Shown here in pieces: positions 12,036-64,000 of a DNA stretch of 64,000 nucleotides. Position 1 is the first letter of the stretch, and each line of letters begins with the position of its first letter. The notes below the pieces were generated by a model. It had not been told where the DNA came from, searched no databases, and saw only the letters and a list, made by a program, of their open reading frames with translations. The translations under genes were made by a program, and so were the position numbers. The stretch is from Candidatus Sericytochromatia bacterium (GTDB lineage Bacteria; Cyanobacteriota; Sericytochromatia; UBA7694). Location of the stretch: the NCBI GenBank assembly GCA_037968875.1, contig JBBKWI010000085.1, forward strand, positions 1,072 through 65,071, read 5' to 3'.

Positions 12036-12142
12036 AACAGCGTTACTAGGCCGATTATATCAGACCTTCAACCCTCGATAAAAGATAGATAGGGGGTTTT
12101 TTAGAAGGGCTGTCCAAAGATAAGATAGTTTAAGAGTCCAAA

Positions 12143-15202: not shown

Positions 15203-16774
15203 TTATTCTTGTCCTTTAAGTGCAAAGACCGGAATAATGCCCCCTCCAGCACCGACATTAATCACTTTGGACTCAGAGATGCGTCCGAGGCAGCCGACAT
15301 ATTTACCATTAAAGACATAGGGGTTTAAGTTCAGGTTCTTTTTCTCGAGCTTAACCTGACTGTCTTTGATTAATGGAAACTCATACTCTGGAATATCTAC
15401 GGCTTCTTGTACAATCCACCAGGGGCAGCCCATTGCATTTTCAATGACAGAGGCCCATTTGTCTTTTTCGGTAAACTTACCGACATAGACTTCATAGCCG
15501 CCAGCGGCCCAGGTGGGTTTCAGGACCAATTCGTCTTGCTGCTTGACCGCATATTCATGTAGAGAAATATCTTCTCCATCTTTTGAGATCGTAATGGATT
15601 CATCCATTTTACGGGTCCAGGGCAAATGATCCCGCAGGCACTGGGCTTCTTTTTGACTAAAGTAATGGTGGTTTTCTTCGTTGCTTAAAAAGGACAGCAT
15701 TTCTTTTTGTGAGCCCAGGGAGGCTCTGAAATGATTCACAGTACACACGGCTCCATCGGCGAGGGCCTGGTGAAAGTCACGCATTTCACGTGGAAAGCGC
15801 TTAAAGAAAGTGAAGCGCAGGCAGATATTGATAATATCAAAGCTGACATTGCCTGAGTAAAGCTTGCCATTGCGATATTCAAAGTCGCGCGGATCAATAA
15901 AGTTGGCTTCGATCCCATGTTCTATTAAAAAGTCGCGAATGATCTCATTGTCAGAGCCAGCCAATAATTCTTTAAAAGAAACCAGAGCCACACGGGGATT
16001 TTTTTTGGTGCCGCCCCATTCTTTATAGCAATTTAAAAGCGCATCTTTTAAGGCATAAAGCATAGGCCGATCGGGCACTCTGCAATATTTGGCAATCAGA
16101 TCTTTGTACAAAGGTGAATGAATGGCCAGATCTTCAAAGGTATCGACCCAGCCTCGGCCTCCCGGGTTATCAGTATTGAACTCAATAAATTTGAGGTTTT
16201 TACCGTCATAAAGGGCGTCATGGCGGCTGAGTATGGTGGGTTTGCTATATTTGGGGTCCCAGTTGATCCATTCCAGGGGGATATCTGGGTAAGGGAAATA
16301 AGAACGGACATACTCATCTTTAAAATAGAGCTTAATCGCTTTGTCCAGAATCTTATCGAGATCTTCGGCTGCTTTGGCAATGCGATCCAAAGAACTGGCT
16401 TTCAAAAACATCGGTGCCAGGGTGACGGGTAGAATTCCGCCACCACTGCCGTAATGACAGCGGCGTTTTAGCAATTGCGACATAAAGTGCTGGCGATGCT
16501 TCATGACTTCACGGGGGTGTTCGATCATCCAATCTGTCAGGGCTTTTTCGGCAGCTTCAAAATTTTGCTCAATCGTGGGATTGACGGAAGGGGGCTCCAA
16601 AAGCTCTTGTCCAGGCAGTATATCTTTGCTATGACTTGCTGATTGAGCGACTGTTTTAACTTTTTTTGTACTTTTGCTAGTGACTTTACTAACTTTGGCA
16701 GTGGCTGAGGTCTTTTGTTCAGTTTTGACAGACTTTTTTGGCATGCATGCTCTCCTGAAGAATCGTGCTAACAC
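15203..16774 (-). CDS. ATP-grasp-like protein (glutathionylspermidine synthase / circularly permuted ATP-grasp family), K-rich N-terminus
   Basis: ORF of 523 aa that abuts the IDH-like gene. Family membership is uncertain and based on general resemblance. Confidence 0.35.
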   Translation of the reverse strand: MLARFFRRACMPKKSVKTEQKTSATAKVSKVTSKSTKKVKTVAQSASHSKDILPGQELLEPPSVNPTIEQNFEAAEKALTDWMIEHPREVMKHRQHFMSQLLKRRCHYGSGGGILPVTLAPMFLKASSLDRIAKAAEDLDKILDKAIKLYFKDEYVRSYFPYPDIPLEWINWDPKYSKPTILSRHDALYDGKNLKFIEFNTDNPGGRGWVDTFEDLAIHSPLYKDLIAKYCRVPDRPMLYALKDALLNCYKEWGGTKKNPRVALVSFKELLAGSDNEIIRDFLIEHGIEANFIDPRDFEYRNGKLYSGNVSFDIINICLRFTFFKRFPREMRDFHQALADGAVCTVNHFRASLGSQKEMLSFLSNEENHHYFSQKEAQCLRDHLPWTRKMDESITISKDGEDISLHEYAVKQQDELVLKPTWAAGGYEVYVGKFTEKDKWASVIENAMGCPWWIVQEAVDIPEYEFPLIKDSQVKLEKKNLNLNPYVFNGKYVGCLGRISESKVINVGAGGGIIPVFALKGQE

Positions 16775-46291: not shown

Positions 46292-47124
46292 ACCCTCCCT
46301 CAGGTCCCAAACCGGCTCCCAAACCGGGTCCCAAATCCGGCCCCGCAGGCAAACCACGCAAGCGTTTGCCGACTGGCAATATTCCGGCTGAACCCCTCGA
46401 AATTTTTGATCCGCCCCCACGTACGCTTTGGCAGCGCCTGCAGTATCCTTTGCGTTGGTTAGGCATTGCCAGTTTGATCAGTGTTGCGATCTGGGCCTTT
46501 CGTTATTATGGGCTCAATCAATATATTGATCAAGAAGCCCTGCAAGCGATGATCGTCCCGCTCGGCCCCTGGGCACCTGTCGCTTTTATTGCCCTGTTTA
46601 CGGTGGCGATGCTGCTGGTGATCGTGCCTTATTCCTGGTTAGCGATTTTCTCGGCGCTGGTCTTTGGCCCGATCTGGGGCACGCTCTGGACCGTATTGGG
46701 TGGAACCAGCGGAGCTGTTGCTATGTTTTTAATGACTCGCCGTCTGGGTCGAAACATGATGGCCCGCCGGGCTGAGAACCCCCGTTGGAAAAATCTCAAT
46801 CAGCGCCTGGAGCAAGATGGCCTCTATTATTTATTGCTGCTGCGTACGCTCTCGATTGTGCCTTTTAATCTCTTGAATGCTGCTGCCGCCATGACCTCAA
46901 TTCGGCTAAGAGATTTTGTGATTGCCAATCTGGTCGGCATCATCCCATCGGCCTTTTTCTATGGTTATGGCACCAAAATTTTGCTAGACCCCAATGCCTC
47001 TAAATCGACTTTGTTTGCCATAGTCGGGCTGGGTGTCTTGATCCTGGTGACGCCACTGGTGTTTCGGCAGGCCCTCAAAGGCCGCCGCCGTCGGTTACAA
47101 CGGCACGCCCAGAAAACATTTTGA
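46288..47124 (+). CDS. DedA/TVP38-family membrane protein with a Pro-rich N-terminal extension
   Basis: The ATG at 46288 overlaps the rnhB stop (ATGA). The body has multiple transmembrane segments in a DedA-like arrangement. The ORF-track start at 46141 is rejected. Confidence 0.65.
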   Translation: MNPPSGPKPAPKPGPKSGPAGKPRKRLPTGNIPAEPLEIFDPPPRTLWQRLQYPLRWLGIASLISVAIWAFRYYGLNQYIDQEALQAMIVPLGPWAPVAFIALFTVAMLLVIVPYSWLAIFSALVFGPIWGTLWTVLGGTSGAVAMFLMTRRLGRNMMARRAENPRWKNLNQRLEQDGLYYLLLLRTLSIVPFNLLNAAAAMTSIRLRDFVIANLVGIIPSAFFYGYGTKILLDPNASKSTLFAIVGLGVLILVTPLVFRQALKGRRRRLQRHAQKTF

Positions 47125-48347
47125 AAGTCGTTCAAAGTGGGTTACGAGCTTTTATCTCTAGCTGCTTGATCAGCGTGTCTTTGTTGTCGTCTGCTCTCGC
47201 TGAGTCTCAGACTTTCTCAAAGGGAACCTATCAGGAACCGCTACTCAGTTTTGACTGCCCCCAGGATCAACAGGAGTACGGTCTGAGCTATCAGGGGGAT
47301 TATGAAGCTGCCACGCATTATTGTGGTCAGGATGCACCTGCTGGATACTGGGTTTATCAGGCGCCACGCTGGACGATTTACCGTCGTCTGAAACGACGGT
47401 CGGCCCTGGAGCAAGCTCGCATGGGCGGCAAGTACAAGAACCTGGTACTAAAAACGAGTTGTCCGGCTGAATTGGCTTCTGAAAAGCAAAGTCTGGGCTC
47501 TTTTTCGGATTATGGCTGGGAAGGTGTCAGCGAATATTGTGGCAAAAAACAGCCATCTGGCTATTGGGTCTGGGTTGCCCCCAATTGGTTTTTGTGGCGC
47601 GAAAAAGACCTGAAAGCGATTGGCTTTGCGGAGCAAGAGATAACGATCCCACTGAAGCAGCCCCTGAAAGTGCAGATCGAATACCAGCAAGATAACAAAG
47701 TCTGGGCGGATACGACTGTCTTCAATTTCAAGCTGGGGGTGCTGGCGCTGGAGGCCTGGAGCCAGATTCCTTTCCCGGGCCGACGGCCCTATCTGATCGA
47801 AGAACGGCCCCATTTTGAATTGCTGGGCTCAGCTGGACGCCATAAAATGACTCTGGCCTCGCCGCCCCGTGGCACACCCTGGACGCTCTTTCATGAGATG
47901 ATCCACATCTGGAATGTCAATGTCACGCCAAGCTGGTTCAACGAAGGTCAGGCCAATTTCATTTCTTATTTGTTGGTCAAAGATTTTCACTTGCCTTTCG
48001 CTGAGCCTGAAACCTGGCTGGCGTATCAACAGGCCTGGGAAGCCATTCAAGACAGCGATCTGGATTTGCCTTTGCAAGGCAATTATTCTCAATTACCTCA
48101 GGGCAAAGCAATGGCTTTTTGGCGGCTAATGTTTGAGCTCGGCGGACCTGCTTTGATCAAAGAAAGCTTTCGCTATAGCATGCAAAACGATCAGGTTTCA
48201 CTGATGGACTTCCAGGCCATCATGGACAAACACCTGGGCCAGTACCCCTTCAGTTCAGATCAGTTTTTATCTGGTTGGGTGCTGCCCGGCCCGTACTATA
48301 TCAAGCAAGCCAAAGAGTTGGGCCCCGTGCGTTACCCTTTGCCCTGA
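47121..48347 (+). CDS. Secreted gluzincin (M1-like) metallopeptidase-like protein with duplicated N-terminal Cys modules
   Basis: ORF of 408 aa with a signal peptide and an internal repeat ('...YCGQDAPAGYWVYQAPRW' / '...YCGKKQPSGYWVWVAPNW'). 'HEMIHIW...WFNEG' matches the M1 pattern HExxHxW...WxNEG. The start overlaps the dedA stop. Confidence 0.5.
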   Translation: MKVVQSGLRAFISSCLISVSLLSSALAESQTFSKGTYQEPLLSFDCPQDQQEYGLSYQGDYEAATHYCGQDAPAGYWVYQAPRWTIYRRLKRRSALEQARMGGKYKNLVLKTSCPAELASEKQSLGSFSDYGWEGVSEYCGKKQPSGYWVWVAPNWFLWREKDLKAIGFAEQEITIPLKQPLKVQIEYQQDNKVWADTTVFNFKLGVLALEAWSQIPFPGRRPYLIEERPHFELLGSAGRHKMTLASPPRGTPWTLFHEMIHIWNVNVTPSWFNEGQANFISYLLVKDFHLPFAEPETWLAYQQAWEAIQDSDLDLPLQGNYSQLPQGKAMAFWRLMFELGGPALIKESFRYSMQNDQVSLMDFQAIMDKHLGQYPFSSDQFLSGWVLPGPYYIKQAKELGPVRYPLP

Positions 48348-48522
48348 TCAATGAACCCGACCTTGATGTCTAGCTGCATACAAAGCAATGCGAGCTACTT
48401 GGCACTGCTATAAGCAGAAAATCGTGTAGAAACCGGTGATGCACTTCCTGAGTCCATCATCGGTTGCACGCAGGATGAAATTGAATTTAGAACGCTTATC
48501 TCAAGATTCAGCTGCCATTGAC

Positions 48523-50133
48523 TTACAATCTAAGGCCTGTGTAAGCCACTCCAGACAAATGTGCCATTTCGCGATCTAAGGTTCCCAGATCATCCAGACA
48601 AAATTGATTCAGATGATCATGACCACAGGCTCTGGCCATTACTTGCATCAATTCCACGCTGGCTTCAAAAAAGTTTTTAAGGCGCACGGCTGATTTTTGA
48701 ATATCCAGTCGGGCCCGTAAACTTTCTTTTTGAGTGGCAATTCCGACCGGGCAATAATCGGTGTGGCAGGCGCGCATCGCCTGACAGCCAATTGCCTGGA
48801 GTGCAGAGTTCGAGACCGCAATCGCATCGGCACCTAATGCCAGGGCTTTAATGAAGTCCGGGGCCGTGCGTAAGCCGCCGGTGATCACGAGGGTGACGTC
48901 TAAGCGGCCCAGACGATTAAGATGTTGGCGAGCTCTGGCCAAAGCAGCAATCGTAGGGACTGAAATATGGTTTCTAAAAATCAGTGGAGCAGCACCGGTT
49001 CCACCGCCCCGTCCATCGAGAATAAGATAGTCCACACCGATTTCTAAGGCTGCGTCTATATCGGCTTCGATGTGATTGGCTGAGAGTTTAAAGCCAATCG
49101 GGATGCCTCCACTGACAGAACGCACCTCTTCAGCCAGGCCTGTAAAGTCTGCTAACGAATGCATATCCGGGAAGGTTGCCGGTGAAATGGCCGGTTCTCC
49201 AGCAGGAATCCCACGTACTTCTGAGATTCTACCTTTGTTTTTGTGGCCAGGTAAATGACCACCGGTCCCTGTTTTTGCGCCCTGTCCACCTTTGAAGTGG
49301 AAAGCCTGTACCTGCGAGAGTAATTCCATTTTAAAGCCAAAGCGGGCCGAGGCCAATTCATAAAAATAGCGCTTGTTTTCAGCTTGCTCTTCAGGTAACA
49401 TGCCGCCTTCGCCTGAGCAAATACCGGTCCCGGCCATTTCTGCACCCCGGGCCAAAGCGATCTTTGACTCTTCCGACAGCGAGCCAAAGCTCATGTCAGA
49501 GACAAATAAGGGGATTTCAAGTATTAAAGGTTTTTTTGCTTTCGGTCCGATCACGACCTGGGTGCCCACAGGGGCTTCATCTAAGAGCGGGCGGCGCATC
49601 AATTGTGCCGGCAAGATTTGGATACTGTCCCAGGCGGGCAATTCATTGCGCCCCACACCCATGGCGGCGACGGGCCCATGGTGCCCCACTTTGCTTAAGC
49701 CATCTTTGGCTAGAGCCTGAATATCTGCCATTGTGTCTTCTTCAGGGGTCGGGGCGGTGGCTACAAAATTCCCCAGGTATTCGTCGCGCTTGAGCATGTG
49801 CGGATTCGCTTTGGCATATGCCTTGACTTCATCAGCATCGACCCAGACCTGATCCCCGTCTCGACCGGCACTAAATTTGTGCAAGACTTCAGCGTTATTG
49901 TATTGACTGACACCGGTATCCAGGCGATAGTCCCAGTTGTGTACACCACAGATTAGATTGTCACCCTCAACATAGCCATCAGCCATCAATGCACCGCGAT
50001 GTAAGCAGCGACCATAATAGACAGCAATCGTGTCATCAATGCGAAGCACCACCAGATCAATTTGTTGGGCCAGGGCATATGCGGGCTGACGATCTGCGAG
50101 ATCGTTCCAGCTATAAATGTTCTGCTTGTTCAT
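48523..50133 (-). CDS. Rieske [2Fe-2S] domain fused to a glutamate-synthase-like FMN-binding domain
   Basis: ORF of 536 aa. The N-terminus has 'CLH...(17)...CGVH', a Rieske CxH...CxxH motif. The C-terminus is a GltS-central-domain-like TIM barrel ('GEGGMLPEE', 'DGRGGGTGAAP'). Confidence 0.65.
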   Translation of the reverse strand: MNKQNIYSWNDLADRQPAYALAQQIDLVVLRIDDTIAVYYGRCLHRGALMADGYVEGDNLICGVHNWDYRLDTGVSQYNNAEVLHKFSAGRDGDQVWVDADEVKAYAKANPHMLKRDEYLGNFVATAPTPEEDTMADIQALAKDGLSKVGHHGPVAAMGVGRNELPAWDSIQILPAQLMRRPLLDEAPVGTQVVIGPKAKKPLILEIPLFVSDMSFGSLSEESKIALARGAEMAGTGICSGEGGMLPEEQAENKRYFYELASARFGFKMELLSQVQAFHFKGGQGAKTGTGGHLPGHKNKGRISEVRGIPAGEPAISPATFPDMHSLADFTGLAEEVRSVSGGIPIGFKLSANHIEADIDAALEIGVDYLILDGRGGGTGAAPLIFRNHISVPTIAALARARQHLNRLGRLDVTLVITGGLRTAPDFIKALALGADAIAVSNSALQAIGCQAMRACHTDYCPVGIATQKESLRARLDIQKSAVRLKNFFEASVELMQVMARACGHDHLNQFCLDDLGTLDREMAHLSGVAYTGLRL

Positions 50134-50145
50134 GGGTGAAGCTCC

Positions 50146-51009
50146 TTAGTGTGTGTGTACGATGTTTTGGCAGGCACGGGTCGCAGTCCTTAAAAAATGC
50201 TGACTATCTGCGAGTAAGTCAGCATGCTGAACCAGCTCTGAGCTTTTGAGAATAGCCCCAAACCAGCCGTCGGTCCGCCAAAAACCGCCTGCTGGCAATG
50301 CGGGTAGTGTATCAGGATTCAGGTTTTCGAGCTCTGGATGCGGCCAGGGTGTCACGTAAAAATAAGGCTCGTCATAATGACTGTCACCCGGTGAAAACCC
50401 GGCATTGACCTCGCCGGCTTTGACTTCGGGGTATTTTTGTAAGCTGGCCATGTCAAAATGATGAGGCCAACAGACCAATGGGGGCTGATCTGGAAATGAT
50501 TGTTGCACAACAGTTAAGGCTGTATGAGCGAGTTGAAACCATTGCTGCAAACATTTGAGTTTGTCTGGCTCCGGTGTAAAGGCTGCTCCTGCTTGTACTC
50601 CATGCTCAGGCATTTCGTGGGGGATCTCTTTGAGCGGATTCGTCGTTGGATCCGTGAGATTTAATTTTTCAGATAACCAGTTTTGAATCTCCGCCTGGGT
50701 GATGCCCTGGAGCTGGAGCTCTGGCGAATCTGTTTGTCTTGCGTGTGGGCGCAAAACGAAGCGAAATGGCTCAAAATGCAGTTCAAGCTCGCTGTAACCA
50801 TGGGCTGGAAGCGTTTGCAGTGGCTGGGTTTTAAAGCACTGAGACTCGGGATCCCAAGACATGGCATAGTGTAGCCAATCTTCATGAGAGACTCCATAAG
50901 TCAGTCCCCATTGTCCCAGCGCTTGTACTGCCCAATGCACTTGCAAACGGCTATCGATGAGTTGTGTCGTGTCATGATTTTTCAGGGTTTGGATATCTAT
51001 CTGAACCAT
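50146..51009 (-). CDS. Hypothetical protein (first gene of the Rieske-GltS operon)
   Basis: The ORF track extends to a TTG at 51060, but the ATG at ~51009 has a good SD (AAGAGAAAGAGG). I recognise no domain. Confidence 0.35.
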   Translation of the reverse strand: MVQIDIQTLKNHDTTQLIDSRLQVHWAVQALGQWGLTYGVSHEDWLHYAMSWDPESQCFKTQPLQTLPAHGYSELELHFEPFRFVLRPHARQTDSPELQLQGITQAEIQNWLSEKLNLTDPTTNPLKEIPHEMPEHGVQAGAAFTPEPDKLKCLQQWFQLAHTALTVVQQSFPDQPPLVCWPHHFDMASLQKYPEVKAGEVNAGFSPGDSHYDEPYFYVTPWPHPELENLNPDTLPALPAGGFWRTDGWFGAILKSSELVQHADLLADSQHFLRTATRACQNIVHTH

Positions 51010-51070
51010 ATCAGGCCTCTTTCTCTTGTCGATGATAGGTTTATCCTGACATAGGTTCAACTAGAGATGC

Positions 51071-51086
51071 TGTCACCTGCGTGACA
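51071..51086. promoter_or_regulatory. Candidate Crp/Fnr-family operator: TGTCA-CCTGCG-TGACA (perfect dyad)
   Basis: The site lies in the divergent intergenic region about 62 bp upstream of the ATG at 51009. It is one of six copies of this dyad found between 51 and 64 kb. Confidence 0.5.
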
Positions 51087-51128
51087 AAGTGTTTAAGTTA
51101 AATATGCTTAATTCTTAGTAAGCTAGAT

Positions 51129-51224
51129 TTAGTTTAAAAGTGAGGGGGCGGGATTCAGCCGAGTCATTTTGCGTTTTTGCATGCGGATCTTGGCCGGATC
51201 TCTGGGCAAATTGACAAGCTGAAA
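51129..51224 (-). pseudogene. Remnant 3' fragment of a Crp/Fnr-family regulator gene, paralogous to the 63603 gene
   Basis: The minus-strand reading frame gives '...LVNLPRDPAKIRMQKRKMTRLNPAPSLLN*'. The regulator C-terminus is '...LLKRLQDQGKIRMQKRKIIWLSPVSSLLS*'. The two share a ~30-nt core at about 88% identity (TTTTnCGTTTTTGCATGCGrATCTTGsCC), and an in-frame stop lies 32 codons upstream. Confidence 0.55.
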
Positions 51225-51348
51225 TTAATTGTCATTTACCAGACAGAATTCTTTTCCTTTTATGCTCTATACTTCCGCTAAATGCTCAGTTGAAGGGCCG
51301 TCAATGGCTTGCCGTTAGCAAAATCAACCCAAAGAGGACTCAGATTTA

Positions 51349-52854
51349 ATGCATATTGTTGAACCCCGTGATGCCCATAATATCGAATTGTTGAAGCAGG
51401 TGCACCCTGAAAACTGGAAAAACCCCCGACCAGACGGACCTTATAACCTGGTGGTAATTGGCGGCGGAACCGCCGGACTGGTTTCGGCTGCCGGTGCGGC
51501 AGGCCTCGGGGCCAAAGTTGCTTTAATTGAGCGCAGCTTAATGGGCGGAGACTGTCTCAATACAGGTTGCGTACCGTCCAAAGCCCTGATTCGCTCAGGA
51601 CGGGCCGCCCATGATATTCGTGAAGCTGCTCAATTTGGCATTCACAGTGAAATTCAGGAGATTGACTTTGCTGCCGCCATGGGCCGCATGCGCCAGGTGC
51701 GCGCACATATCAGCCATCATGATTCATTTGAGCGTTTTAAAAATCTAGGCATTGATGTTTATATGGGTTCCGCCCAGTTTATCAATGACCGTCAGATTCA
51801 GGTCGGAGACCAGATCCTGGACTTTAAAAAAGCGGTGATCGCCACGGGTGCACGGGCCCGTGTGCCAGATCTCCCCGGCTTGCAAGATGTCGGTTATTTA
51901 ACCAATGAAAATGTCTTTAATTTGACGGAGCTGCCCAAACGTCTGGTTTGTATCGGTGGGGGCCCGATTGGCTGCGAGCTAGCTCAGGCTTTTCATCGCC
52001 TGGGTGCCAAGGTCACGCTGATTCATAACAGTGATCATTTGCTCAACCGCGAAGATCCCGACGCCGCTGCAATTGTGCAGGACCAGTTTATCAATGAGGG
52101 AATTGAACTGATACTCAATGCTGAATTGACTGGCGTGAGTCAGTCGACAGAAGGTAAAGTCATTAATTATACGGTGCAAGGGCAGACCCGTCAGGTCCAT
52201 GCCGATGCTATTTTGCTGGCCACTGGCCGTCAGCCCAATGTCGATAATCTGGGACTCAAAGAAGCTGGGGTGCGCTTTAAGCCCCAGGGTGTGGATGTGA
52301 ACGATTTTTTACAGACCAGCAATCCCCGCATTTTTGCTGCCGGGGATGTCTGTATGCGTTGGCAATTTACCCATGCAGCAGATTTCGCGGCCCGGATTGT
52401 TTTGCAGAATGCTCTGTTTATGGGGCGTAAAAAATTATCGGGCTTGCTAATGCCCTGGTGCACCTATACGGATCCAGAAGTAGCACATGTGGGACTCTAT
52501 GCTCATGAGGCCAAAGCTCAGAATATTGCCGTGGATATTTATCAGAAACCCTTTTCAGAAGTCGATCGGGCGCTGGCGGACGGTGAAACCGAAGGCTTTG
52601 TCAAAGTGATCACAGCCAAAGGCAGCGATCGCATTCTGGGAGCGACCGTGGTGGCCCGTCATGCCGGGGATATGCTGGGCGAACTGACCCTGGCCATGCA
52701 GCACAAGATCGGTCTGGGCAAGATCGCTTCGGTGATTCATCCTTATCCAACTCAGGCAGAAGCAATCCGGCATTTGGGAGATCAATACAACCGCACCCGC
52801 CTGAAGCCCTGGGTCAAAAACCTGTTTAATACCTGGCTGCGTATGCGTCGTTAA
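51349..52854 (+). CDS. FAD-dependent pyridine-nucleotide-disulfide oxidoreductase (glutathione-reductase / dihydrolipoamide-dehydrogenase family)
   Basis: ORF of 501 aa with the redox-active 'GGDCLNTGCVPSK', two Rossmann GxGxxG motifs and a C-terminal dimerisation-domain 'HPYPTQAE'-type His-Pro. Confidence 0.8.
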   Translation: MHIVEPRDAHNIELLKQVHPENWKNPRPDGPYNLVVIGGGTAGLVSAAGAAGLGAKVALIERSLMGGDCLNTGCVPSKALIRSGRAAHDIREAAQFGIHSEIQEIDFAAAMGRMRQVRAHISHHDSFERFKNLGIDVYMGSAQFINDRQIQVGDQILDFKKAVIATGARARVPDLPGLQDVGYLTNENVFNLTELPKRLVCIGGGPIGCELAQAFHRLGAKVTLIHNSDHLLNREDPDAAAIVQDQFINEGIELILNAELTGVSQSTEGKVINYTVQGQTRQVHADAILLATGRQPNVDNLGLKEAGVRFKPQGVDVNDFLQTSNPRIFAAGDVCMRWQFTHAADFAARIVLQNALFMGRKKLSGLLMPWCTYTDPEVAHVGLYAHEAKAQNIAVDIYQKPFSEVDRALADGETEGFVKVITAKGSDRILGATVVARHAGDMLGELTLAMQHKIGLGKIASVIHPYPTQAEAIRHLGDQYNRTRLKPWVKNLFNTWLRMRR

Positions 52855-52879
52855 GCTGATAGCTATCAAAGGAGAACCT

Positions 52880-53239
52880 GTGAAGATCTTTAGCCTGTTT
52901 GAAAAACTCTGGCAGCGGCTACAGCCAGCCGTAAACGCCAGCCGTTTTGCGGGCTTTGATCTGGATAAGCCCCCTACAGAATTGGTGTTATACAAGTTTA
53001 ATAGCTGTATTTTTTGCCAGCGAGTGATGGGCTTTATCGACCAGCACCAGCTGCCGGTGAGCTATCGGGATTTGCGAGAGCATTCAGAGTATCGCCAGGA
53101 ACTGCTGGCTCTCACTGGCCGGAGCCAGGTGCCCTGTTTGTTGATCGACGGCCAGCCTATGCTAGAGTCGGCAGATATTGTGGCCTATCTGCATCATGTT
53201 TTTGTCTCAGGAGGAAAGAGCAATGCCGAAATACTTTAA
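52880..53239 (+). CDS. Glutaredoxin-like thioredoxin-fold protein (CxxC)
   Basis: ORF of 119 aa with 'YKFNSCIFCQRV' as the active site and a Grx-like 'VPCLLIDGQ'. It has a GTG start with AAGGAG 7 nt upstream. Confidence 0.55.
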   Translation: MKIFSLFEKLWQRLQPAVNASRFAGFDLDKPPTELVLYKFNSCIFCQRVMGFIDQHQLPVSYRDLREHSEYRQELLALTGRSQVPCLLIDGQPMLESADIVAYLHHVFVSGGKSNAEIL

Positions 53240-53284
53240 AAGCATGGCTTAAACCCCCACCTTTTTTATAAATGGCAATGTTTT

Positions 53285-53300
53285 TGTTAGCTGGCTGACA
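53285..53300. promoter_or_regulatory. Candidate Crp/Fnr-family operator: TGTTA-GCTGGC-TGACA (1 mismatch)
   Basis: The site lies about 91 bp upstream of the peroxiredoxin-like ATG at 53384. Confidence 0.4.
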
Positions 53301-53383
53301 GAATAGGATAGCCCCTATTGTTTAATCTAAATATACCGGGCAGACCTGATCTGCACGAATCAGTACGAATATAGGAGTGTGAC

Positions 53384-54028
53384 ATGTCTCTCAATACCGA
53401 ACTCAAAGCCTTTAACCAGCAGGGTTTAGCCCAGATGCCCGCCGAGATGGTTGATACGATTCAGCAAGGGCTCAAAGAGCTGCAGGCCAGTAGCCTGGAA
53501 GCGCAAGCGCTAAGACGGGGGCGCTTTCCTGATTTTGACTTACCCAATGCCCTGGGACAAACGATTCGTTTAAGCGACATTTTGCAAAAGGGCCCGGCAG
53601 TCATCAGCTTTTATCGCGGCAGTTGGTGTCCGTACTGCAATATTGAGCTACGAGCGCACCAACAGCTGTTGCCAGAGCTTCAGGCTCTGGGTGCCCAATT
53701 GATAGCTATTTCACCAGAACAACCGGATTACAGCCTGAACCTCAAAGAAAAGAAAAACCTTGCCTTTGAAGTACTCAGTGATACCGACAACCAGCTGGCC
53801 AAACAACTGGGCCTGGTGGCTGATCTGAGCCAGGCACTGGATCAACTCTATCAGAAGGTGCTGCAGGCCAATGTGGCTGAGCGCAACGGCACACCATCCC
53901 CCCAGCTGCCCATCCCCGCAACGTACGTACTCAATAGCGACGGAGAAATTCTGTTGGCCCATGTTCAGGTGGATTATACCCAGCGACTGGAGCCTGCTGA
54001 GATTCTTGAGACGCTCAAGCAAATCTGA
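53384..54028 (+). CDS. Peroxiredoxin-like (AhpC/TSA / redoxin family) protein
   Basis: ORF of 214 aa with 'FYRGSWCPYCN', a thioredoxin-fold CxxC, in a Prx-like context. Confidence 0.55.
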   Translation: MSLNTELKAFNQQGLAQMPAEMVDTIQQGLKELQASSLEAQALRRGRFPDFDLPNALGQTIRLSDILQKGPAVISFYRGSWCPYCNIELRAHQQLLPELQALGAQLIAISPEQPDYSLNLKEKKNLAFEVLSDTDNQLAKQLGLVADLSQALDQLYQKVLQANVAERNGTPSPQLPIPATYVLNSDGEILLAHVQVDYTQRLEPAEILETLKQI

Positions 54029-54533: not shown

Positions 54534-54896
54534 TTATTTCTTTTTCAGGGTGTGTATATAGGCAACAACATCCTGAATTTGCGTATCAGACAGGGTCGTT
54601 CCCCAGGCCGGCATCGCCCCTTTGCCCTTCTTGATAAAGGCCAGCATTCCAGCATCATTTTTGCTGTACTTAAAATCCCCTATCGAAAAATTCCGTGGGG
54701 GTGGCTTCAGGGCTTTGCCCGTTGGGCCGTCCGCCTTGCCGGTTTTGCCATGACAGGCAGAACAGTTTTGGGCATAGATTTTTTTACCCTTGCTGGCATT
54801 GCCTGCCGCAGCTTCAGCGGGTGGGCTGCTTTGCCATAGAGCAGCATAAGACATGCCTCCGCTAACAGCTATAATCAGAGCTAATTTTTTAAACAT
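54534..54896 (-). CDS. Class I c-type cytochrome (c6/c553-like), secreted
   Basis: ORF of 120 aa with a signal peptide, the single heme-binding 'CSACHG' and a distal Met ligand region 'GAMPAWG'. Confidence 0.75.
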   Translation of the reverse strand: MFKKLALIIAVSGGMSYAALWQSSPPAEAAAGNASKGKKIYAQNCSACHGKTGKADGPTGKALKPPPRNFSIGDFKYSKNDAGMLAFIKKGKGAMPAWGTTLSDTQIQDVVAYIHTLKKK

Positions 54897-54918
54897 TTCT
54901 GAACTCCTTTTTTATGAT

Positions 54919-56787
54919 TTACTTTAGTTTGAGGGTAATGCTACTGCGAACCACAGGAGCGGTCCCATACTTGCCCCCGGCAAACATGGGATTAGGTACA
55001 CCATCTTCATCGGTATCACGCATTTCCATCATCATTTTCATGCGTTGGTCTTGCGGCATTGTCATTAACTTTTTCATCTGCAGGGTCATTTTCGCCATTT
55101 CAATTTCGTCCTCGGGAAGATCTTCACCGGATTGCCCCATTTCAGCCAATTGCAGTCCCTGGCCATCTTCGCGTCTAACGGTGTGGTTGAAAAAGAGCGT
55201 CATGTGTTTGACTGCATCAGCCTGCAGCGGTTCTGAAGCCAGGGCCAGGTCGCGCAAAGCACCCAGTGTTGCAGCCACCGTCGCAGGGCTAAAAGTAGTC
55301 TGGTGTTGATCGTTGCGCTGGGCTTTAAACAATTGATTGGATTCAGACCAGAATTGTTGCTTCAGAGCCTGGTACCCTTTGCTAGCTGCACTCAGGTAAC
55401 GGGCATCTTTTGTGGTTTTATAAGCCAGAGTCAGTGTTCTGATGGCCTGGGTCTGGGCTTCCAGGTTAGGGTTAGTCAAATCAGCTTGTTGACGATTCAA
55501 GTCATAACCGTTGGCAAAACTGCCATCTTTTTGTTGCAGCTGATTCAGTACAAAATCAGCTTGCTGGGTTAAAAAATCTCGGGCCATTTTTTGAATCATG
55601 GGCTCATTATGAAAAGCCCGCACACTGTTTTCAAGCGCAACGGCCAGGACGCCCAGTTCAGCGGTGTCGGCGTAAGTGCCTGCTTTACCCGGTTCAGCAC
55701 GGCTGGCCATCACCTGATGCTGTGAGTTTTGATGCATGGCCATCAAATTTTTGAGAATCACCGCCGAAATACCCTTGCTTAACATATGGGGATCTTGAGG
55801 AAAGAGGGCACCTTTGCTTTCGTCGCCAAAGATAGCATCATAGCTGTCTTTGACTGTGGGGTCTGAATAGTGGTAAAACTCACTGCTGGCCCAGAGTAAA
55901 GAAGCCTGATCATAAAGGTGACTGCTTTTATCCAGGACATCAAAGCCAGCCAGCATGGGGGGCATACCTGGCATCATCGACTTCAGTTGGGGTTTGACGG
56001 CGTGTGGAAAATACTTCAGGCCTTGCATGGGATCGTAAGTCATGGGATTGACGGCACCCAGATTTTTCCCATCAAACGCCAGTTGATCTTTAAAGGTCAT
56101 CAGACTGTTGAGTGCCAAAGCGGTCAGGACGCCGCCACGAAAACCATCAAAAGCATCTCTGCCCAGGAGATTGCCGCGATGCGATGAGAAAAAGTCTTCG
56201 GCCCAGAGGATTTGTTTGGTGGCTGTTTGACCGATGGCTGCTGGGGTCAGGGTTTGATCGGCCTGCCCAGGGTCCCAGCGCATGGTGCCAAAGTCAAAGG
56301 GGTTGGGGCTTTGGGTAAATTGGGGATTGCCTTCAGCAAAGGGTAAATAGATCGGGTAGGGATTTTTGGGCATCTCTTGTAGCCCGGAGCGCATCATAAA
56401 TTGCTTCATTTTGTGCATCATAAAATCCTGGGGTTTGGCAAATTTGTCAGGATTCATTTTAGACATTTGCTGTCCCACTGGGCCATTGACCATATGCACA
56501 CCCATGCCGGAGTTCATCACCAGGCTGCCCATATTGTAAACGCTATACCAATAGGCATCTGAATTGATGCTGGAGCCCAGTGATTTATACGGCAGGCCGC
56601 AGGAAAAAATTAGAATTTCTTCATTGGCCAGCTGCATTGCTGCCGCGGTATTAAAGCGCGGGGCCTTGTGCTTGTCAGCCATCATCATGTCCTGTTCAGC
56701 TGCCAGAGCCGAAGTCGGAACCAGCTGCACAAACAACACGGAGGCTGCTGTCAGGTTCAGTATTTTGGACGGTAAGGATAATTTCAT
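54919..56787 (-). CDS. Secreted Met-rich protein of unknown function
   Basis: ORF of 622 aa with a signal peptide. It has Met clusters at both ends ('EQDMMMADKH', 'FMMHKMKQFMMR', 'MKMMMEMR'). It contains no CxxCH motif. Confidence 0.4.
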   Translation of the reverse strand: MKLSLPSKILNLTAASVLFVQLVPTSALAAEQDMMMADKHKAPRFNTAAAMQLANEEILIFSCGLPYKSLGSSINSDAYWYSVYNMGSLVMNSGMGVHMVNGPVGQQMSKMNPDKFAKPQDFMMHKMKQFMMRSGLQEMPKNPYPIYLPFAEGNPQFTQSPNPFDFGTMRWDPGQADQTLTPAAIGQTATKQILWAEDFFSSHRGNLLGRDAFDGFRGGVLTALALNSLMTFKDQLAFDGKNLGAVNPMTYDPMQGLKYFPHAVKPQLKSMMPGMPPMLAGFDVLDKSSHLYDQASLLWASSEFYHYSDPTVKDSYDAIFGDESKGALFPQDPHMLSKGISAVILKNLMAMHQNSQHQVMASRAEPGKAGTYADTAELGVLAVALENSVRAFHNEPMIQKMARDFLTQQADFVLNQLQQKDGSFANGYDLNRQQADLTNPNLEAQTQAIRTLTLAYKTTKDARYLSAASKGYQALKQQFWSESNQLFKAQRNDQHQTTFSPATVAATLGALRDLALASEPLQADAVKHMTLFFNHTVRREDGQGLQLAEMGQSGEDLPEDEIEMAKMTLQMKKLMTMPQDQRMKMMMEMRDTDEDGVPNPMFAGGKYGTAPVVRSSITLKLK

Positions 56788-57741: not shown

Positions 57742-57757
57742 TGTCAGGGGGATGACA
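57742..57757. promoter_or_regulatory. Candidate Crp/Fnr-family operator: TGTCA-GGGGGA-TGACA (perfect dyad)
   Basis: The site is central in the divergent 57708–57811 intergenic region, 62 bp before the DUF4344 ATG and 42 bp before the minus-strand gene start. Confidence 0.5.
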
Positions 57758-59766: not shown

Positions 59767-59782
59767 TGTCAGATAGCTGACA
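59767..59782. promoter_or_regulatory. Candidate Crp/Fnr-family operator: TGTCA-GATAGC-TGACA (perfect dyad)
   Basis: The site lies in the divergent region, 55 bp before the DUF3179 start and about 123 bp before the ALS-like ATG. Confidence 0.5.
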
Positions 59783-59897: not shown

Positions 59898-61538
59898 ATG
59901 AAGGCATCTGATTTATTTATAAAAGCACTAGAAAACGAAGGCGTTGAGTATATCTTTGGTATTCCGGGTGAAGAGAATCTGGATTTTTTGGATTCATTAA
60001 AGAATTCCTCAATCAAACTGATTTTGACTCGCCATGAGCAGGGAGCCGGTTTTATGGCTGCAACTTATGGTCGCTTAACAGGCAAAGTAGGTGTTTGTCT
60101 TTCAACCTTAGGCCCGGGTGCAACAAATTTAGTCACTCCAGCAGCTTATGCCAATTTAGGGGCCATGCCCATGCTGATGATCACAGGCCAAAAGCCCATT
60201 AAGAAAAGCAAACAAGGACGTTTTCAAATCATCGATACGGTCAATATGATGCGCCCACTCACCAAATACAGCGAGCAGATCGTGAATGGAAACAATATTC
60301 CTGCGATGACCCGAGAGGCGATACGACTGGCAATAGAAGAGCGTCCCGGAGCCGTACATTTAGAGCTTCCTGAAGATATCGCAGCAGAAGCCTGTGAGGA
60401 TCGTGTCTTTGCAGTGGTGGGACATCGTCGACCCGATGCCGATGAACAAGCCATATTAGAAGCTGTCGCCATGATTGAAAAAGCCAAGATGCCGCTGATT
60501 TTAATTGGAGCAGGTGCCAATCGAAAACCCACCAGCAAGGCATTGAATAAACTGATTGAAAAAACCAATATTCCTTTTTTCAATACCCAATTGGGCAAAG
60601 GGGTTGTAGATGAAAGACACCCTCGATTTTTAGGGACAGCAGCCTTATCAGACCATGATTTTCTTCATTGCGCTGTCAATAGAGCCGATCTGATCATTAA
60701 CGTGGGTCACGATGTCATCGAAAAACCGCCCTTTTTTATGGACCAAATCAAAAAAGTCATTCATCTGAACTTTTTCCCTGCTGAGGTTGATGAAGTCTAT
60801 TTCCCTCAGCTCAACGTGGTCGGAGATATCGCGACCTCACTTGAACATATTGCCGATCATATCAAAGAAAAATCTGAAAATTGGGATTTCTCCTATTTTG
60901 AACGGATTAAAACAGAAGTCGAATCCCATTTATCAAAATACGAAAAGGATCAGCGTTTTCCGATACTGCCTCAAAGACTGGTTAAAATAGTGAGAGAGCA
61001 TTTGCCAGAAGATGGCATTGTGACTCTGGATAATGGTGTGTATAAAATTTGGTTTGCTCGAAATTTCCCATCTTATCAACCCAATACCCTTTTATTGGAC
61101 AATGCCCTGGCAACGATGGGGGCTGGACTACCATCAGCTATCGCCGCAAAAATAGTTTTCCCAGAACGCAAAGTTATCTCTGTTTGCGGAGACGGTGGGT
61201 TTATGATGAATTCCCAGGAACTAGAAACAGCCGTTCGTTTGGGCTTGGATTTGGTCGTCATTGTTTTAAATGACCGTTCATATGGCATGATCAAATGGAA
61301 GCAAGAAGCCATGGGCTTTGCTAATTTCGGATTAGAATATCAAAACCCTGATTTTGTTAAATATGCTGAAAGTTATGGGGCCGTCGGGCATCGCCCCCAA
61401 AGCACCCAGGAATTCACTCAAATTTTAGATCAAACGCTTAATGCTAAAGGGATTCACTTGATTGATTTAGCAGTGGATTACAGCCTGAATCATCGTATTT
61501 TAAATGTCTTACTTAAAGAAAAAACCTGTGTTTTATAA
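59898..61538 (+). CDS. Thiamine-pyrophosphate enzyme, acetolactate-synthase (catabolic AlsS)-like
   Basis: ORF of 546 aa with the TPP-binding 'GDGGFMMNSQELETA' and ALS-family N- and middle domains. Confidence 0.75.
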   Translation: MKASDLFIKALENEGVEYIFGIPGEENLDFLDSLKNSSIKLILTRHEQGAGFMAATYGRLTGKVGVCLSTLGPGATNLVTPAAYANLGAMPMLMITGQKPIKKSKQGRFQIIDTVNMMRPLTKYSEQIVNGNNIPAMTREAIRLAIEERPGAVHLELPEDIAAEACEDRVFAVVGHRRPDADEQAILEAVAMIEKAKMPLILIGAGANRKPTSKALNKLIEKTNIPFFNTQLGKGVVDERHPRFLGTAALSDHDFLHCAVNRADLIINVGHDVIEKPPFFMDQIKKVIHLNFFPAEVDEVYFPQLNVVGDIATSLEHIADHIKEKSENWDFSYFERIKTEVESHLSKYEKDQRFPILPQRLVKIVREHLPEDGIVTLDNGVYKIWFARNFPSYQPNTLLLDNALATMGAGLPSAIAAKIVFPERKVISVCGDGGFMMNSQELETAVRLGLDLVVIVLNDRSYGMIKWKQEAMGFANFGLEYQNPDFVKYAESYGAVGHRPQSTQEFTQILDQTLNAKGIHLIDLAVDYSLNHRILNVLLKEKTCVL

Positions 61539-61559
61539 AAACTGAAAGCGGTTCAAACA

Positions 61560-62951
61560 ATGAAAACATTAAATGTATACGCACCCCATGATCAAAGTCT
61601 GATTCAAGAGATTGCTCTGATGGGAGCAGCTGAATTAGAACATATGATTAACAAAGCCCATCAGCTATTTCAAAACCCTGATCAAGCCTTGCCTGCTTAT
61701 GAACGGGTCGATATTTTGGAAAGAGTGGTTCATATTATGAATCAACAAGTCGAACGCCTAACCAAAATAGCCGCAGAAGAAGGGGGGAAACCTTATCAAG
61801 ACTCAAAAGTAGAGGTCCTGAGAGCGATCAATGGGGTGAAATTGGCGATTGAACATATCAGCCAGTTAAAAGGGGAACAAATCCCAATGGGGCACACTCG
61901 CTCTTCAGCTCAACGCCTGGCTTTTACAACCAGAGAACCGATTGGATTGGTCGCCTCTGTTAGCGCTTTTAATCATCCTTTGAATCTGATTATTCATCAA
62001 ACCATACCTGCGATTGCTGTTGGTTCGCCCGTGATTGTGAAACCGGCTGGGACAACCCCGCTTTCTTGCCTGGCTTTCATGGATATATTAAAAGAAGCCG
62101 GCTTGCCTGAAGGGTGGTGTAGCGCCTTTATTGGCAATCGAGAATTGGCTGAGAAATTAGTCACAGATTCTCGGGTGAACTATTTCTCTTTTATTGGCTC
62201 AGGGGGTGTGGGCTGGTCTTTACGTTCAAAACTCTCTCCAGGGACTCGCTGTGCTCTTGAACATGGCGGGGTTGCACCGGTCATTGTAGAGCCTGATGCA
62301 GATATAGAAAGCATGTTGCCGGCTTTACTTAAGGGCGGCTTTTATCATGCGGGTCAGGTCTGTGTCTCTGTGCAACGTATTTATGTACACCAAAAAATTT
62401 GTACACAAGTGGCCCAACAATTGGCCGAAATGGCAGAAAAACTAGTCGTTGGAAACCCTCTGAACGAAGATACAGAAGTGGGACCCTTAATTCTACCCAA
62501 AGAAGTAGACCGGGTCGAAAGCTGGGTCAATGAGGCTATCGAATTGGGTGCGACTGTATTGTGTGGTGGCAAACGTTTGTCTGATACTTACTATGCACCC
62601 ACAGTGCTGCTGAATCCACCTGATACGGCCAAAATTTCTAGCCAAGAAGTTTTTGGCCCCGTCGTTTGTGTTTATAGTTATGCTGACAGAGCTGAAGCCA
62701 TCAAAAGAGCCAATGCTTTACCTTATGCTTTTCAAGCCGCTATTTTCACCAATGATCTCAATGTGAGTTTGGAACTGGTTAAGCAACTCAATGCCACAGC
62801 AGTGATGGTGAATGACCATACTGCCTTCAGAGTCGATTGGATGCCTTTTGGGGGTCGAGATGTTTCAGGTATTGGTATGGGCGGCATTCCCTATTCTATG
62901 CATGAAATGACCCGCACAAAAATGATGGTGATTAAGTATAAAAATGGATAG
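61560..62951 (+). CDS. NAD(P)-dependent aldehyde dehydrogenase
   Basis: ORF of 463 aa with 'ALEHGG' (the catalytic Glu region), 'FYHAGQVCVSVQR' (the catalytic Cys) and 'FIGSGGVG'. Confidence 0.8.
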   Translation: MKTLNVYAPHDQSLIQEIALMGAAELEHMINKAHQLFQNPDQALPAYERVDILERVVHIMNQQVERLTKIAAEEGGKPYQDSKVEVLRAINGVKLAIEHISQLKGEQIPMGHTRSSAQRLAFTTREPIGLVASVSAFNHPLNLIIHQTIPAIAVGSPVIVKPAGTTPLSCLAFMDILKEAGLPEGWCSAFIGNRELAEKLVTDSRVNYFSFIGSGGVGWSLRSKLSPGTRCALEHGGVAPVIVEPDADIESMLPALLKGGFYHAGQVCVSVQRIYVHQKICTQVAQQLAEMAEKLVVGNPLNEDTEVGPLILPKEVDRVESWVNEAIELGATVLCGGKRLSDTYYAPTVLLNPPDTAKISSQEVFGPVVCVYSYADRAEAIKRANALPYAFQAAIFTNDLNVSLELVKQLNATAVMVNDHTAFRVDWMPFGGRDVSGIGMGGIPYSMHEMTRTKMMVIKYKNG

Positions 62952-63511: not shown

Positions 63512-63527
63512 TGTCATCTACCTGACA
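63512..63527. promoter_or_regulatory. Candidate Crp/Fnr-family operator: TGTCA-TCTACC-TGACA (perfect dyad)
   Basis: The site lies about 85–92 bp upstream of the membrane-protein start at 63427 and about 80 bp past the regulator stop. Confidence 0.5.
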
Positions 63528-63602: not shown

Positions 63603-64000
63603 CTAGCTTAAAAGCGAACTGACGGGACTCAACCAGATGATTTTTCGTTTTTGCATGCGAATCTTGCCCTGGTCTTGCAGGCGCTTGAGCAAATCCGTGA
63701 CCGTGGGCCGGGCCAGGTTGGTCAACTCGCCCAGATCCTGATGGGTCAGGGGTAAATTGATCAGCGTACCGTCTGGCAAGGATTCACCGTGCTCTTTGCT
63801 GAGGTATTTTAAGACACTTTCAATCCGCTGCTCAGCAGTTTTAAAGACCAGATCCTGCACGCGGCTTGTGACCTGGCGCAGGCGTAAACCCATTAGCTTG
63901 GTGACTTTGAGATTGAGTTGGGGGTGACTTTCTAAAAAGGATTCAAAGTCATTTTTATGTACGATGCAGAGCAAGGTTTCTTCCAGGGCTTCAGCCATGC
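63603..64000 (-). CDS. Crp/Fnr-family transcriptional regulator (3' part; the gene continues beyond the window end)
   Basis: It shows cNMP-binding-like and HTH_Crp C-terminal regions ('THQDLGELTNLARPTVTDLLKRL'). The N-terminus lies outside the window. Confidence 0.65.
   Translation of the reverse strand, partial: MAEALEETLLCIVHKNDFESFLESHPQLNLKVTKLMGLRLRQVTSRVQDLVFKTAEQRIESVLKYLSKEHGESLPDGTLINLPLTHQDLGELTNLARPTVTDLLKRLQDQGKIRMQKRKIIWLSPVSSLLS

Follow-up and report, generated by a model that had tools for sequence, protein, structure and literature searches.

Iron-sulfur flavoenzymes of the glutamate synthase (GltS) type are textbook models of intramolecular electron transfer and, to our knowledge, all characterised members are assimilatory and glutamine- or ferredoxin/NAD(P)H-dependent. 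Their flavin mononucleotide (FMN) domain (Pfam Glu_synthase, PF01645) also occurs as a stand-alone protein with an N-terminal Fe-S module, the ferredoxin-GltB of archaeal glutamate synthases. Fusions of a CDGSH [2Fe-2S] domain to Glu_synthase are likewise on record (PMC5859297). These proteins are either uncharacterised or work with separate amidotransferase and GXGXG subunits. Here we analyse a 64,000-nucleotide stretch of the genome of a Candidatus Sericytochromatia bacterium (contig JBBKWI010000085.1; hereafter the window, to which all coordinates refer), in which an operon encodes a DUF5996-like protein and a 536-aa Rieske-[3Fe-4S]-FMN protein, RGltS. RGltS resembles the archaeal and CDGSH proteins in having a small Fe-S module N-terminal to a stand-alone PF01645 domain but differs from them in the nature of this module, a Rieske 2Cys-2His cluster, and in the absence of the separate subunits, which were not found for it.

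The window thus holds one more member of a large, conserved and uncharacterised family, a variant of the GltS-type Fe-S flavoenzymes with a Rieske port. We propose, with about even confidence, that the operon specifies a two-part electron-transfer unit in which RGltS is a glutamate/2-oxoglutarate-type dehydrogenase with a Rieske port and the DUF5996-like protein is its partner; within this model we infer what RGltS acts on, which way its electrons run, that its Rieske domain physically touches the DUF5996-like protein, and which regulator is at work, whereas the domain make-up, the ligand motifs of the cofactors, the conserved catalytic residues, the operon layout, the neighbourhood counts and the excess of the palindrome are established here. 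Relevant features are collected in Table 1.

Table 1. Features of the RGltS operon and of the units proposed to be co-regulated with it.
Feature	Position	Strand	Basis and remarks
RGltS gene ('glutamate synthase-related protein')	48523..50133	-	ORF, Pfam, end-to-end relatives, Foldseek
RGltS GltS-type FMN (synthase) TIM-barrel domain, residues 196-536	48526..49548	-	PF01645, PDB GltS alignments
RGltS [3Fe-4S]-type cysteine motif, C450-X5-C456-X4-C461	48751..48786	-	translation, alignment
RGltS family-specific linker, residues 106-195	49549..49818	-	invariant columns in 18 sequences
RGltS N-terminal ferredoxin-type Rieske [2Fe-2S] domain, residues 1-105	49819..50133	-	Pfam, PDB sequence matches
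DUF5996-like gene, 287 aa	50146..51009	-	ORF, start and ribosome-binding site, PF19459; soluble predicted partner of Rieske domains
Palindrome TGTCA-N6-TGACA (dyad TGTCAC-N4-GTGACA)	51071..51086	.	about 70 nt upstream of the ATG; putative CRP/FNR-family operator
One-mismatch palindrome copy	51230..51245	.	same divergent intergenic region as the 51071 site
Divergent disulfide reductase-glutaredoxin operon and peroxiredoxin gene	51349..54028	+	putative regulon member
622-aa Met-rich signal-peptide protein, then cytochrome c	54534..56787	-	putative regulon member
ALS-like TPP enzyme	59898..61538	+	putative regulon member, together with the following gene
Aldehyde dehydrogenase	61560..62951	+	second gene of the preceding unit
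CRP/FNR-family regulator gene, 3' part, cut by the window end	63603..64000	-	candidate factor for the palindrome
ORF, open reading frame; ALS, acetolactate synthase; TPP, thiamine pyrophosphate.

Domains and redox sites of RGltS and its operon partner

RGltS begins with a Rieske domain and ends with an FMN domain. Pfam assigned residues 9-76 to Rieske (PF00355; 40.3 bits against a cut-off of 20.3) and residues 198-504 to Glu_synthase ('conserved region in glutamate synthase'; 297 bits, E 2.4e-88), and in NCBIfam the N-terminal part resembled dioxygenase ferredoxin subunits and NirD. The fusion reported in a preliminary description of this DNA is therefore real (PF00355 plus PF01645), and both of its ORFs are present on the minus strand (ORF list). 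The Rieske motif translates to CLHRGALMADGYVEGDNLICGVH, with the ligands C43-L-H45-X16-C62-G-V-H65 encoded at 49939-50007 and C43, H45, C62 and H65 invariant across 18 relatives; the CXH and CXXH pairs stand as described, but their spacing is X16 and not the 17 residues claimed. From this ligand motif, the domain is predicted to bind a cluster. The N-terminal ~110 residues (11-102 covered) gave PDB sequence matches to oxygenase Rieske ferredoxins (2i7f, T4moC 1vm9, TodB 3dqy and BphF 1fqt), with which the domain shares size, the CXH-X16-CXXH pattern and the lack of a high-potential disulfide, differing in that here the ferredoxin is fused to a flavoenzyme. Because reading the sequence showed neither of the two additional cysteines that make up the disulfide in high-potential Rieske proteins, we assign the domain to the low-potential, ferredoxin type, a classification by disulfide cysteines that rests on established knowledge of the Rieske family. 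Neither a Rieske oxygenase catalytic subunit nor an NAD(P)H reductase was found in the operon, and Pfam detected no RHO_alpha_C/SRPBCC oxygenase domain in RGltS or the DUF5996-like protein.

An AlphaFold2 (AF2) model gave an all-beta Rieske region (residues 3-99), with a predicted local distance difference test score (pLDDT) mostly of 87-91 and of 60-79 round the cluster loops, followed by a TIM barrel. A Foldseek search, which the preliminary description had suggested as a check and in which the FMN domain of the whole model dominated, placed the glutamate synthases 1ofd, 7mfm and 6s6s on top (E ~1e-16), followed by the glycolate oxidase/flavocytochrome b2 family. The [3Fe-4S] motif translates to CQAMRACHTDYC and aligns with GCIMVRQCHSNTC of Azospirillum GltS, its cysteines C450, C456 and C461 being invariant in the 18 relatives. 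Between the two domains lies a linker covered by no Pfam model (residues 106-195) that is strongly conserved, with R116, Y119, E132 and G150-H-H-G153 invariant in 18 sequences, and poorly modelled (AF2 pLDDT <50 at residues 121-162).

Comparison with the GOGAT alpha subunit and ferredoxin-dependent GltS (1ofd, 1ea0, 7mfm) revealed a common FMN barrel (27-29% identity), the CX5CX4C motif and equivalents of the catalytic residues E903, Q969, K972 and R992, but RGltS has 536 aa as against ~1500 aa, carries a Rieske domain in place of the Ntn-amidotransferase, central and GXGXG domains, and is without the beta subunit and ammonia tunnel. The amidotransferase, central (PF04898) and GXGXG (PF01493) domains were not found in RGltS by Pfam (E <= 0.01) or NCBIfam, so that it cannot use glutamine as nitrogen donor and would have no ammonia tunnel, and its C-terminal part scored only 144.2 bits with GltB, for which the equivalog cut-off is 1047 (NF008730). 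Judged from its domains, RGltS is hence not a glutamate synthase, as had been anticipated; the barrel is nonetheless the FMN/synthase domain itself, rather than the 'central-domain-like' one for which it had been taken. In the numbering of Synechocystis ferredoxin-dependent GltS (1llw/1ofd), E903, Q969, K972 and R992 are kept as E242, Q284, K287 and R307, whereas E975 and Q978 are changed to T290 and H293, and all six RGltS residues are invariant over the 18 diverse family members by which invariance was judged. The catalytic loop from Q284 to R307 is encoded at 49213-49284 (-) (translated). Following the GltS structural literature, we take E903, Q969, K972, Q978 and R992 to be residues that bind 2-oxoglutarate/2-iminoglutarate and act in catalysis. 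The chemistry of RGltS is thus probably that of the GltS synthase site, with glutamate/2-oxoglutarate or a close relative as substrate.

The upstream ORF (50146-51060, -) reads as 304 aa from a TTG at 51060 and as 287 aa from an ATG at 51009. As the latter is preceded by an AAGAGG ribosome-binding site and is where the public protein P0127 and the 73%-identical P0128 begin, it is almost certainly the true start. Only 12 nt, with a GGAG site before RGltS, separate the stop of this gene from the RGltS start, no terminator-like site was found between the two, and a relative (ENA contig L088) has the identical gene order and the identical 12-nt gap, all of which makes co-transcription, as originally assumed, very likely. 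The upstream protein, which the preliminary description could not place, is by its profile match a divergent member of Pfam DUF5996 (PF19459): it scored 32.3-32.7 bits against a gathering threshold of 25, a weak match of residues 201-280 to profile positions 209-283 of 296, and 96 of 101 of its relatives also matched (best E 1.5e-12). Like DUF5996 proteins it is ~280-300 aa long, but it matches only over its C-terminal 80 residues and forms a divergent branch. Its AF2 model is very confident (pLDDT 94.3; predicted template modelling score, pTM, 0.92), with two helix-plus-sheet halves. Foldseek found no PDB relative (best E 0.017, TM 0.11), and a PDB profile search and NCBIfam gave no match; the fold is thus confidently predicted without a solved relative. 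A literature search for DUF5996 likewise found no function, structure or characterisation. Invariant in the family are H25, W181, H183, H184, D186, G204, G208, D209, P215, Y216, Y218, P223, P225 and W244, with the motifs WPHHFD, SPGD and EPYFYV-PWP and no conserved cysteines. That the protein is a diverged Rieske-oxygenase catalytic (SRPBCC) domain was considered and rejected, given that neither Foldseek nor profile searches returned such a match although the PDB holds many Rieske oxygenases.

Distribution of the fusion and its genomic partners

A sequence database search with RGltS returned at least 8000 scored relatives. The best 120, which we inspected, were 67-82% identical over 97-100% of the query and 528-565 aa long, except for one 487-aa fragment, and all but the fragment carried both Rieske and Glu_synthase domains. 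Since these relatives run end to end with both domains in one chain, the fusion is not an assembly or frameshift artefact, a possibility that the preliminary description had itself raised. They come from Planctomycetota, Calditrichia, Alphaproteobacteria, Anaerolineae, Thermoanaerobaculia and other taxa, under annotations such as 'glutamate synthase-related protein' or the automatic JGI name 'methylamine-glutamate N-methyltransferase subunit C'. Scanning species-representative genomes with family-specific peptide patterns yielded at least 586 confirmed relatives, the best 80 of which span more than 10 phyla, with identities of 63-82% across phyla. The fusion is therefore not the rarity it was first taken for: it is found in many phyla and is already named in databases. 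At 50% identity and E <= 1e-30, the N-terminal module formed 78 clusters, and when the first 195 residues served as query, gene fragments made up most of the matches and no new architecture appeared. The family is thus compact in sequence and phylogenetically wide. That hundreds of bacteria in more than 10 phyla, most of them aquatic, share it at ~70% identity points to an unstudied, probably central, redox reaction of amino-acid or 2-oxo-acid metabolism. No characterisation of the fusion turned up in literature searches that covered it and PF01645/COG0069. In two independent Nitrospirales assemblies (L083:4328-5936 and L084:1479-3087), RGltS is split into overlapping ORFs of 322 and 230 aa next to a DUF5996-like gene, which may reflect a frameshift, a pseudogene or a recurrent sequencing error.

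To survey the RGltS neighbourhoods, ORFs were called and clustered and hidden Markov models (HMMs) built for the best 80 of the at least 586 genome loci; the recurrent neighbours all lay on the same strand as RGltS. The most frequent was a Rieske-fused TPP enzyme of ~657 aa (35 of 80 loci), whose best NCBIfam models are pyruvate oxidase and ubiquinone-dependent pyruvate dehydrogenase. A ~350-aa protein with a ferric-reductase/MsrQ-like membrane domain and a C-terminal Rieske domain occurred at 30 loci, accompanied by a 125-aa membrane protein (31 loci) and a 253-aa Cys-rich anchored protein (29 loci), both of which are missing only where the contig ends; at L008 they occur without the ferric-reductase-Rieske gene. 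An Na+/H+ exchanger gene stood upstream of RGltS at 23 loci, a DUF5996-like gene, always 0-2 kb away, at 15, and none of these neighbours at 20. DUF5996-RGltS adjacency was found in at least seven phyla or classes (among them Bacteroidota, Bdellovibrionota, Nitrospirota, Myxococcota, Gammaproteobacteria and several alphaproteobacterial families) and was scattered on a neighbour-joining tree of RGltS. Since it is missing at most RGltS loci and sometimes occurs without a Rieske neighbour, the DUF5996-like protein is best seen as a recurrent but facultative partner.

Two arrangements deserve separate mention. In marine Alphaproteobacteria (L005, L006, L009, L015, L034 at 8567-15892, L039 and others), a conserved cluster has, in this order, the Na+/H+ exchanger, RGltS, the PoxB-like Rieske-TPP enzyme, the 125-aa membrane protein, the ferric-reductase-Rieske protein and the 253-aa Cys-rich anchored protein, with three uncharacterised Rieske fusions per cluster. 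At the locus of the closest listed RGltS relative (82% identity; L086:6186-9626), RGltS is preceded on its own strand by genes for a bestrophin-type channel and an LCIB-type carbonic-anhydrase-like protein, and a DUF5996-like gene is lacking.

The reverse view was obtained from 80 loci of the DUF5996-like family in a metagenome scan. A Rieske-domain gene adjoined the DUF5996-like gene at 43 of them, and only 10 loci with at least 400 bp on both flanks lacked one; the Rieske HMM matched no ORF in 409 kb of control flanks, and no other neighbour was recurrent at the 80 loci. The adjoining Rieske fusions were of four types: RGltS, the Rieske-TPP enzyme, the ferric-reductase-Rieske protein and a ~365-aa fusion of Rieske with FMN_red (flavodoxin-like) that bears a Cys insert, CEGYYSKS-x-x-CTWPC. 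The last lies beside DUF5996-like genes or diverges from them, for the most part in metagenomes from soil (L090:278-1387(-), L097:4968-6119, L149:1621-2739, L157:194-1324(-) and ~10 more loci). As what these loci have in common is the Rieske domain, not any single enzyme, the DUF5996-like protein would work with the Rieske domain, and the most economical model is that it serves as a shared redox partner of several electron-input modules. The idea that DUF5996-like and ferric-reductase-Rieske proteins are mutually exclusive acceptors, raised by their distribution at RGltS loci (Fisher p = 0.007), was discarded since their genes are directly adjacent in at least 10 metagenome loci. These neighbourhoods provide a first functional handle on DUF5996-like proteins, whose genes accompany the Rieske ports of redox enzymes of four kinds, and make the four Rieske-fusion enzymes a defined set that can be tested together; were the DUF5996-like protein indeed their common acceptor, they would form a new modular electron-transfer system.

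Proposed electron transfer and competing explanations

In the proposed mechanism, a glutamate/2-oxoglutarate-type substrate would bind at the GltS-like FMN site of RGltS, and two electrons would move between FMN and the adjacent [3Fe-4S] cluster and then singly to or from the low-potential Rieske cluster. The Rieske domain would stand in for what is a beta subunit or ferredoxin in true glutamate synthases, and would serve as docking port for the partner, with RGltS most likely running the 'synthase half-reaction' alone. We favour the oxidative direction, in which an amino acid would be converted via the imino acid to the 2-oxo acid and NH4+, with electrons leaving via the Rieske domain; the DUF5996-like protein, soluble and with an invariant His/His/Asp/Tyr cluster, is taken to be the redox acceptor or an adaptor at this port. 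Judging from gene neighbours elsewhere, electrons are at least as likely to leave by the Rieske domain as to enter by it, and its role as an exit port is favoured because the neighbouring PoxB-type enzymes and dehydrogenases release electrons. A CRP/FNR-family regulator would probably control the operon via TGTCA-N6-TGACA, together with a thiol-peroxidase operon and a pair of genes at 59898-62951 that resembles the cyanobacterial OgdA/SsaD operon.

This pair, which lies 9 kb from the RGltS operon and is not part of it, has the same palindrome upstream. Its aldehyde dehydrogenase has ALDH21 as best PDB match, and the literature links ALDH21 to the gamma-aminobutyric acid (GABA) shunt and succinic semialdehyde; ALDH21 itself is presumably a succinic-semialdehyde dehydrogenase. 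The TPP enzyme matched NF006187 at 872 bits and, after a 3-residue register shift, keeps K386, K471, Y465 and M410, the residues that contact alpha-ketoglutarate in the Microcystis alpha-ketoglutarate decarboxylase (KGD; PMC10418658). The pair resembles in gene order and enzyme families the ogdA-ssaD operon, which in cyanobacteria converts 2-oxoglutarate to succinate (PMC5160925). Together with the PoxB-like Rieske-TPP neighbours elsewhere, it fits a route from glutamate to a 2-oxo acid and on to a decarboxylated product, in which RGltS would take the first oxidative step. A more ambitious version, which we consider doubtful, would make DUF5996-like proteins a new-fold class of terminal redox proteins that accept or donate electrons through the Rieske ports of at least four modules, and RGltS an NAD(P)-independent glutamate dehydrogenase of the respiratory type that supplies a bypass from 2-oxoglutarate to succinate; the modules would be the GltS-type FMN/[3Fe-4S] dehydrogenase, a PoxB-like TPP decarboxylase, an NAD(P)H-FMN_red/iron-sulfur flavoprotein and a transmembrane dihaem ferric-reductase domain, with Rieske ports fused to them independently.

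Several observations weigh against RGltS and the DUF5996-like protein forming the two-part unit proposed above. The DUF5996-like gene is not beside RGltS in 65 of the 80 genomes, including the two closest listed relatives, and some DUF5996-like genes have no Rieske gene nearby. The DUF5996-like protein itself has no cysteine motif, no structural relative and no sign of metal or cofactor binding, and the Rieske HMM behind the neighbourhood counts was built from these very families and is tuned to this subtype. On the side of RGltS, no studied member of the family was met in the literature searched, and the AF2 model is only moderate (mean pLDDT 75, pTM 0.66). Throughout the family, T290 and H293 stand in place of the E975 and Q978 of GltS, and the substrate of RGltS need not be glutamate/2-oxoglutarate. 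Similarity, finally, is the sole basis for reading the distant gene pair as OgdA/SsaD.

Were electrons to flow the other way, from a donor through the Rieske and [3Fe-4S] clusters to FMN, RGltS would be an ammonia-dependent, glutamine-independent glutamate synthase that forms L-glutamate from 2-oxoglutarate and NH3. The external donor might act through the DUF5996-like protein or through a Rieske-TPP enzyme that oxidises a 2-oxo acid, an arrangement that corresponds to the oxidoreductase 'fed by' a Rieske cluster of the preliminary description. We regard this as rather unlikely. In its favour, the equivalents of E903, Q969, K972 and R992 and the [3Fe-4S] site are all kept, a low-potential Rieske cluster could, by established potentials, thermodynamically reduce the FMN site, and both the archaeal stand-alone FMN-domain GltS with its N-terminal Fe-S module and the CDGSH-Glu_synthase fusions offer precedents. 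Yet no amidotransferase or GXGXG partner genes lie beside RGltS in the window or at the 80 loci, the conserved neighbours are electron-releasing PoxB-like TPP types and a transmembrane haem module, and RGltS appears to be co-regulated with the 2-oxoglutarate-consuming OgdA/SsaD-like pair and not with assimilation genes.

The fixed T290 and H293 of the catalytic loop would also suit an enzyme acting on another C-N/C=N substrate, such as another amino acid, an N-alkyl amino acid, an opine-like compound or an osmolyte, with the DUF5996-like protein possibly a second enzyme of the pathway. The automatic JGI name and the varied contexts (Na+/H+ exchanger, major facilitator superfamily transporter, bestrophin plus LCIB-type carbonic anhydrase) point the same way, but the carboxylate-binding R307 and K287 are kept, an identity of 63-82% across phyla would fit a universal metabolite better than a niche compound, and DUF5996-like genes go with the Rieske domains of four unrelated enzymes, which ties them to the Rieske domain and not to one pathway. 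The JGI name also recalls MgsC (N-methylglutamate synthase subunit C), from which RGltS differs in having no MgsA/MgsB-type partner genes alongside: neither MgsA (amidotransferase-like) nor MgsB (GXGXG) genes were found in the window or among the recurrent neighbours at the 80 RGltS loci. We judge a different substrate of this kind unlikely. It is more improbable still that the DUF5996-like protein serves this Rieske subtype in maturation or repair or as a chaperone, or that its adjacency has no meaning. Its lack of a recognisable cofactor motif or structural relative, its absence from most RGltS loci and the copies without a Rieske neighbour would agree with either, but same-strand adjacency, often with gaps of 0-40 nt, recurs beside four Rieske fusions in many lineages and the control flanks hold no Rieske ORF at all, which makes chance adjacency unlikely but does not count against a maturation role.

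Palindromes and a putative local regulon

The dyad noted in the preliminary description upstream of the operon is real and belongs to a recurring operator-like motif. Taken as 6-nt arms with up to two mismatches it was not significant (5 of 100 shuffles reached its count), and significance appeared only on recasting it as TGTCA-N6-TGACA. Perfect copies of the latter lie at 51071-51086, 57742-57757, 59767-59782 and 63512-63527, as against 0.05 expected in the window; no shuffle yielded more than one, and all four are intergenic and upstream of genes. The window also contains six one-mismatch copies; three of these (51230, 53285 before the peroxiredoxin gene, and 56850) likewise lie between genes, ahead of a coding sequence. 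Among 168 other loci, the palindrome was present only in the close relative L088, with its core at the same place upstream of the DUF5996-like gene and the surrounding DNA diverged.

Over the final 13 kb of the window, the palindromes mark a putative regulon, which would consist of the DUF5996-like/RGltS operon and the further units so labelled in Table 1. A candidate regulator is encoded by the gene fragment at the window end, which matched HTH_Crp_2 (E 3.5e-12) and Crp (E 9e-6) and whose best NCBIfam models are PtrA, CRP and NtcA, all under cut-off. The perfect palindrome at 63512 lies just downstream of this gene. Its recognition helix reads RPTVTD as against RETVGR in CRP, and would therefore fit a half-site other than TGTGA. 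The CRP-family regulator and the palindrome are thus a plausible regulator-operator pair. For the window itself the significance is more modest than for the family: it offers one more family member, with a clear candidate operator and regulator, in what appears to be a local CRP-type regulon.

A scan of 48200-51500 for sigma-70 promoters and terminators was uninformative (9 promoter-like sites against 3.3 expected and 4 terminator-like sites against 3.2) and gave no terminator-like site after the RGltS operon; Rfam detected no RNA genes in the window. A gene that converges on that of RGltS (47121-48347, +) encodes a 408-aa secreted-looking protein with an HEMIH (HEXXH) zinc-peptidase-like motif and no Pfam match. 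The disulfide reductase encoded divergently from the operon was considered as a Rieske-ferredoxin reductase and rejected: it is a class I enzyme with flavin adenine dinucleotide (FAD), a CLNTGC disulfide motif and a Pyr_redox_dim domain, matches PRK06370.1-3 at 802 bits and is followed by glutaredoxin and peroxiredoxin genes. In L088, the gene immediately upstream of the DUF5996-like one, and on its strand, is that of the peroxiredoxin, which carries an in-frame TAG (coverage 2.4x). The protein encoded at 54534-56787 (-) has Met-rich stretches at both ends (MMMADKH... and MKMMMEMRD); palindrome 56850 lies upstream of its gene, and a gene for a cbb3-type mono-haem cytochrome c follows.

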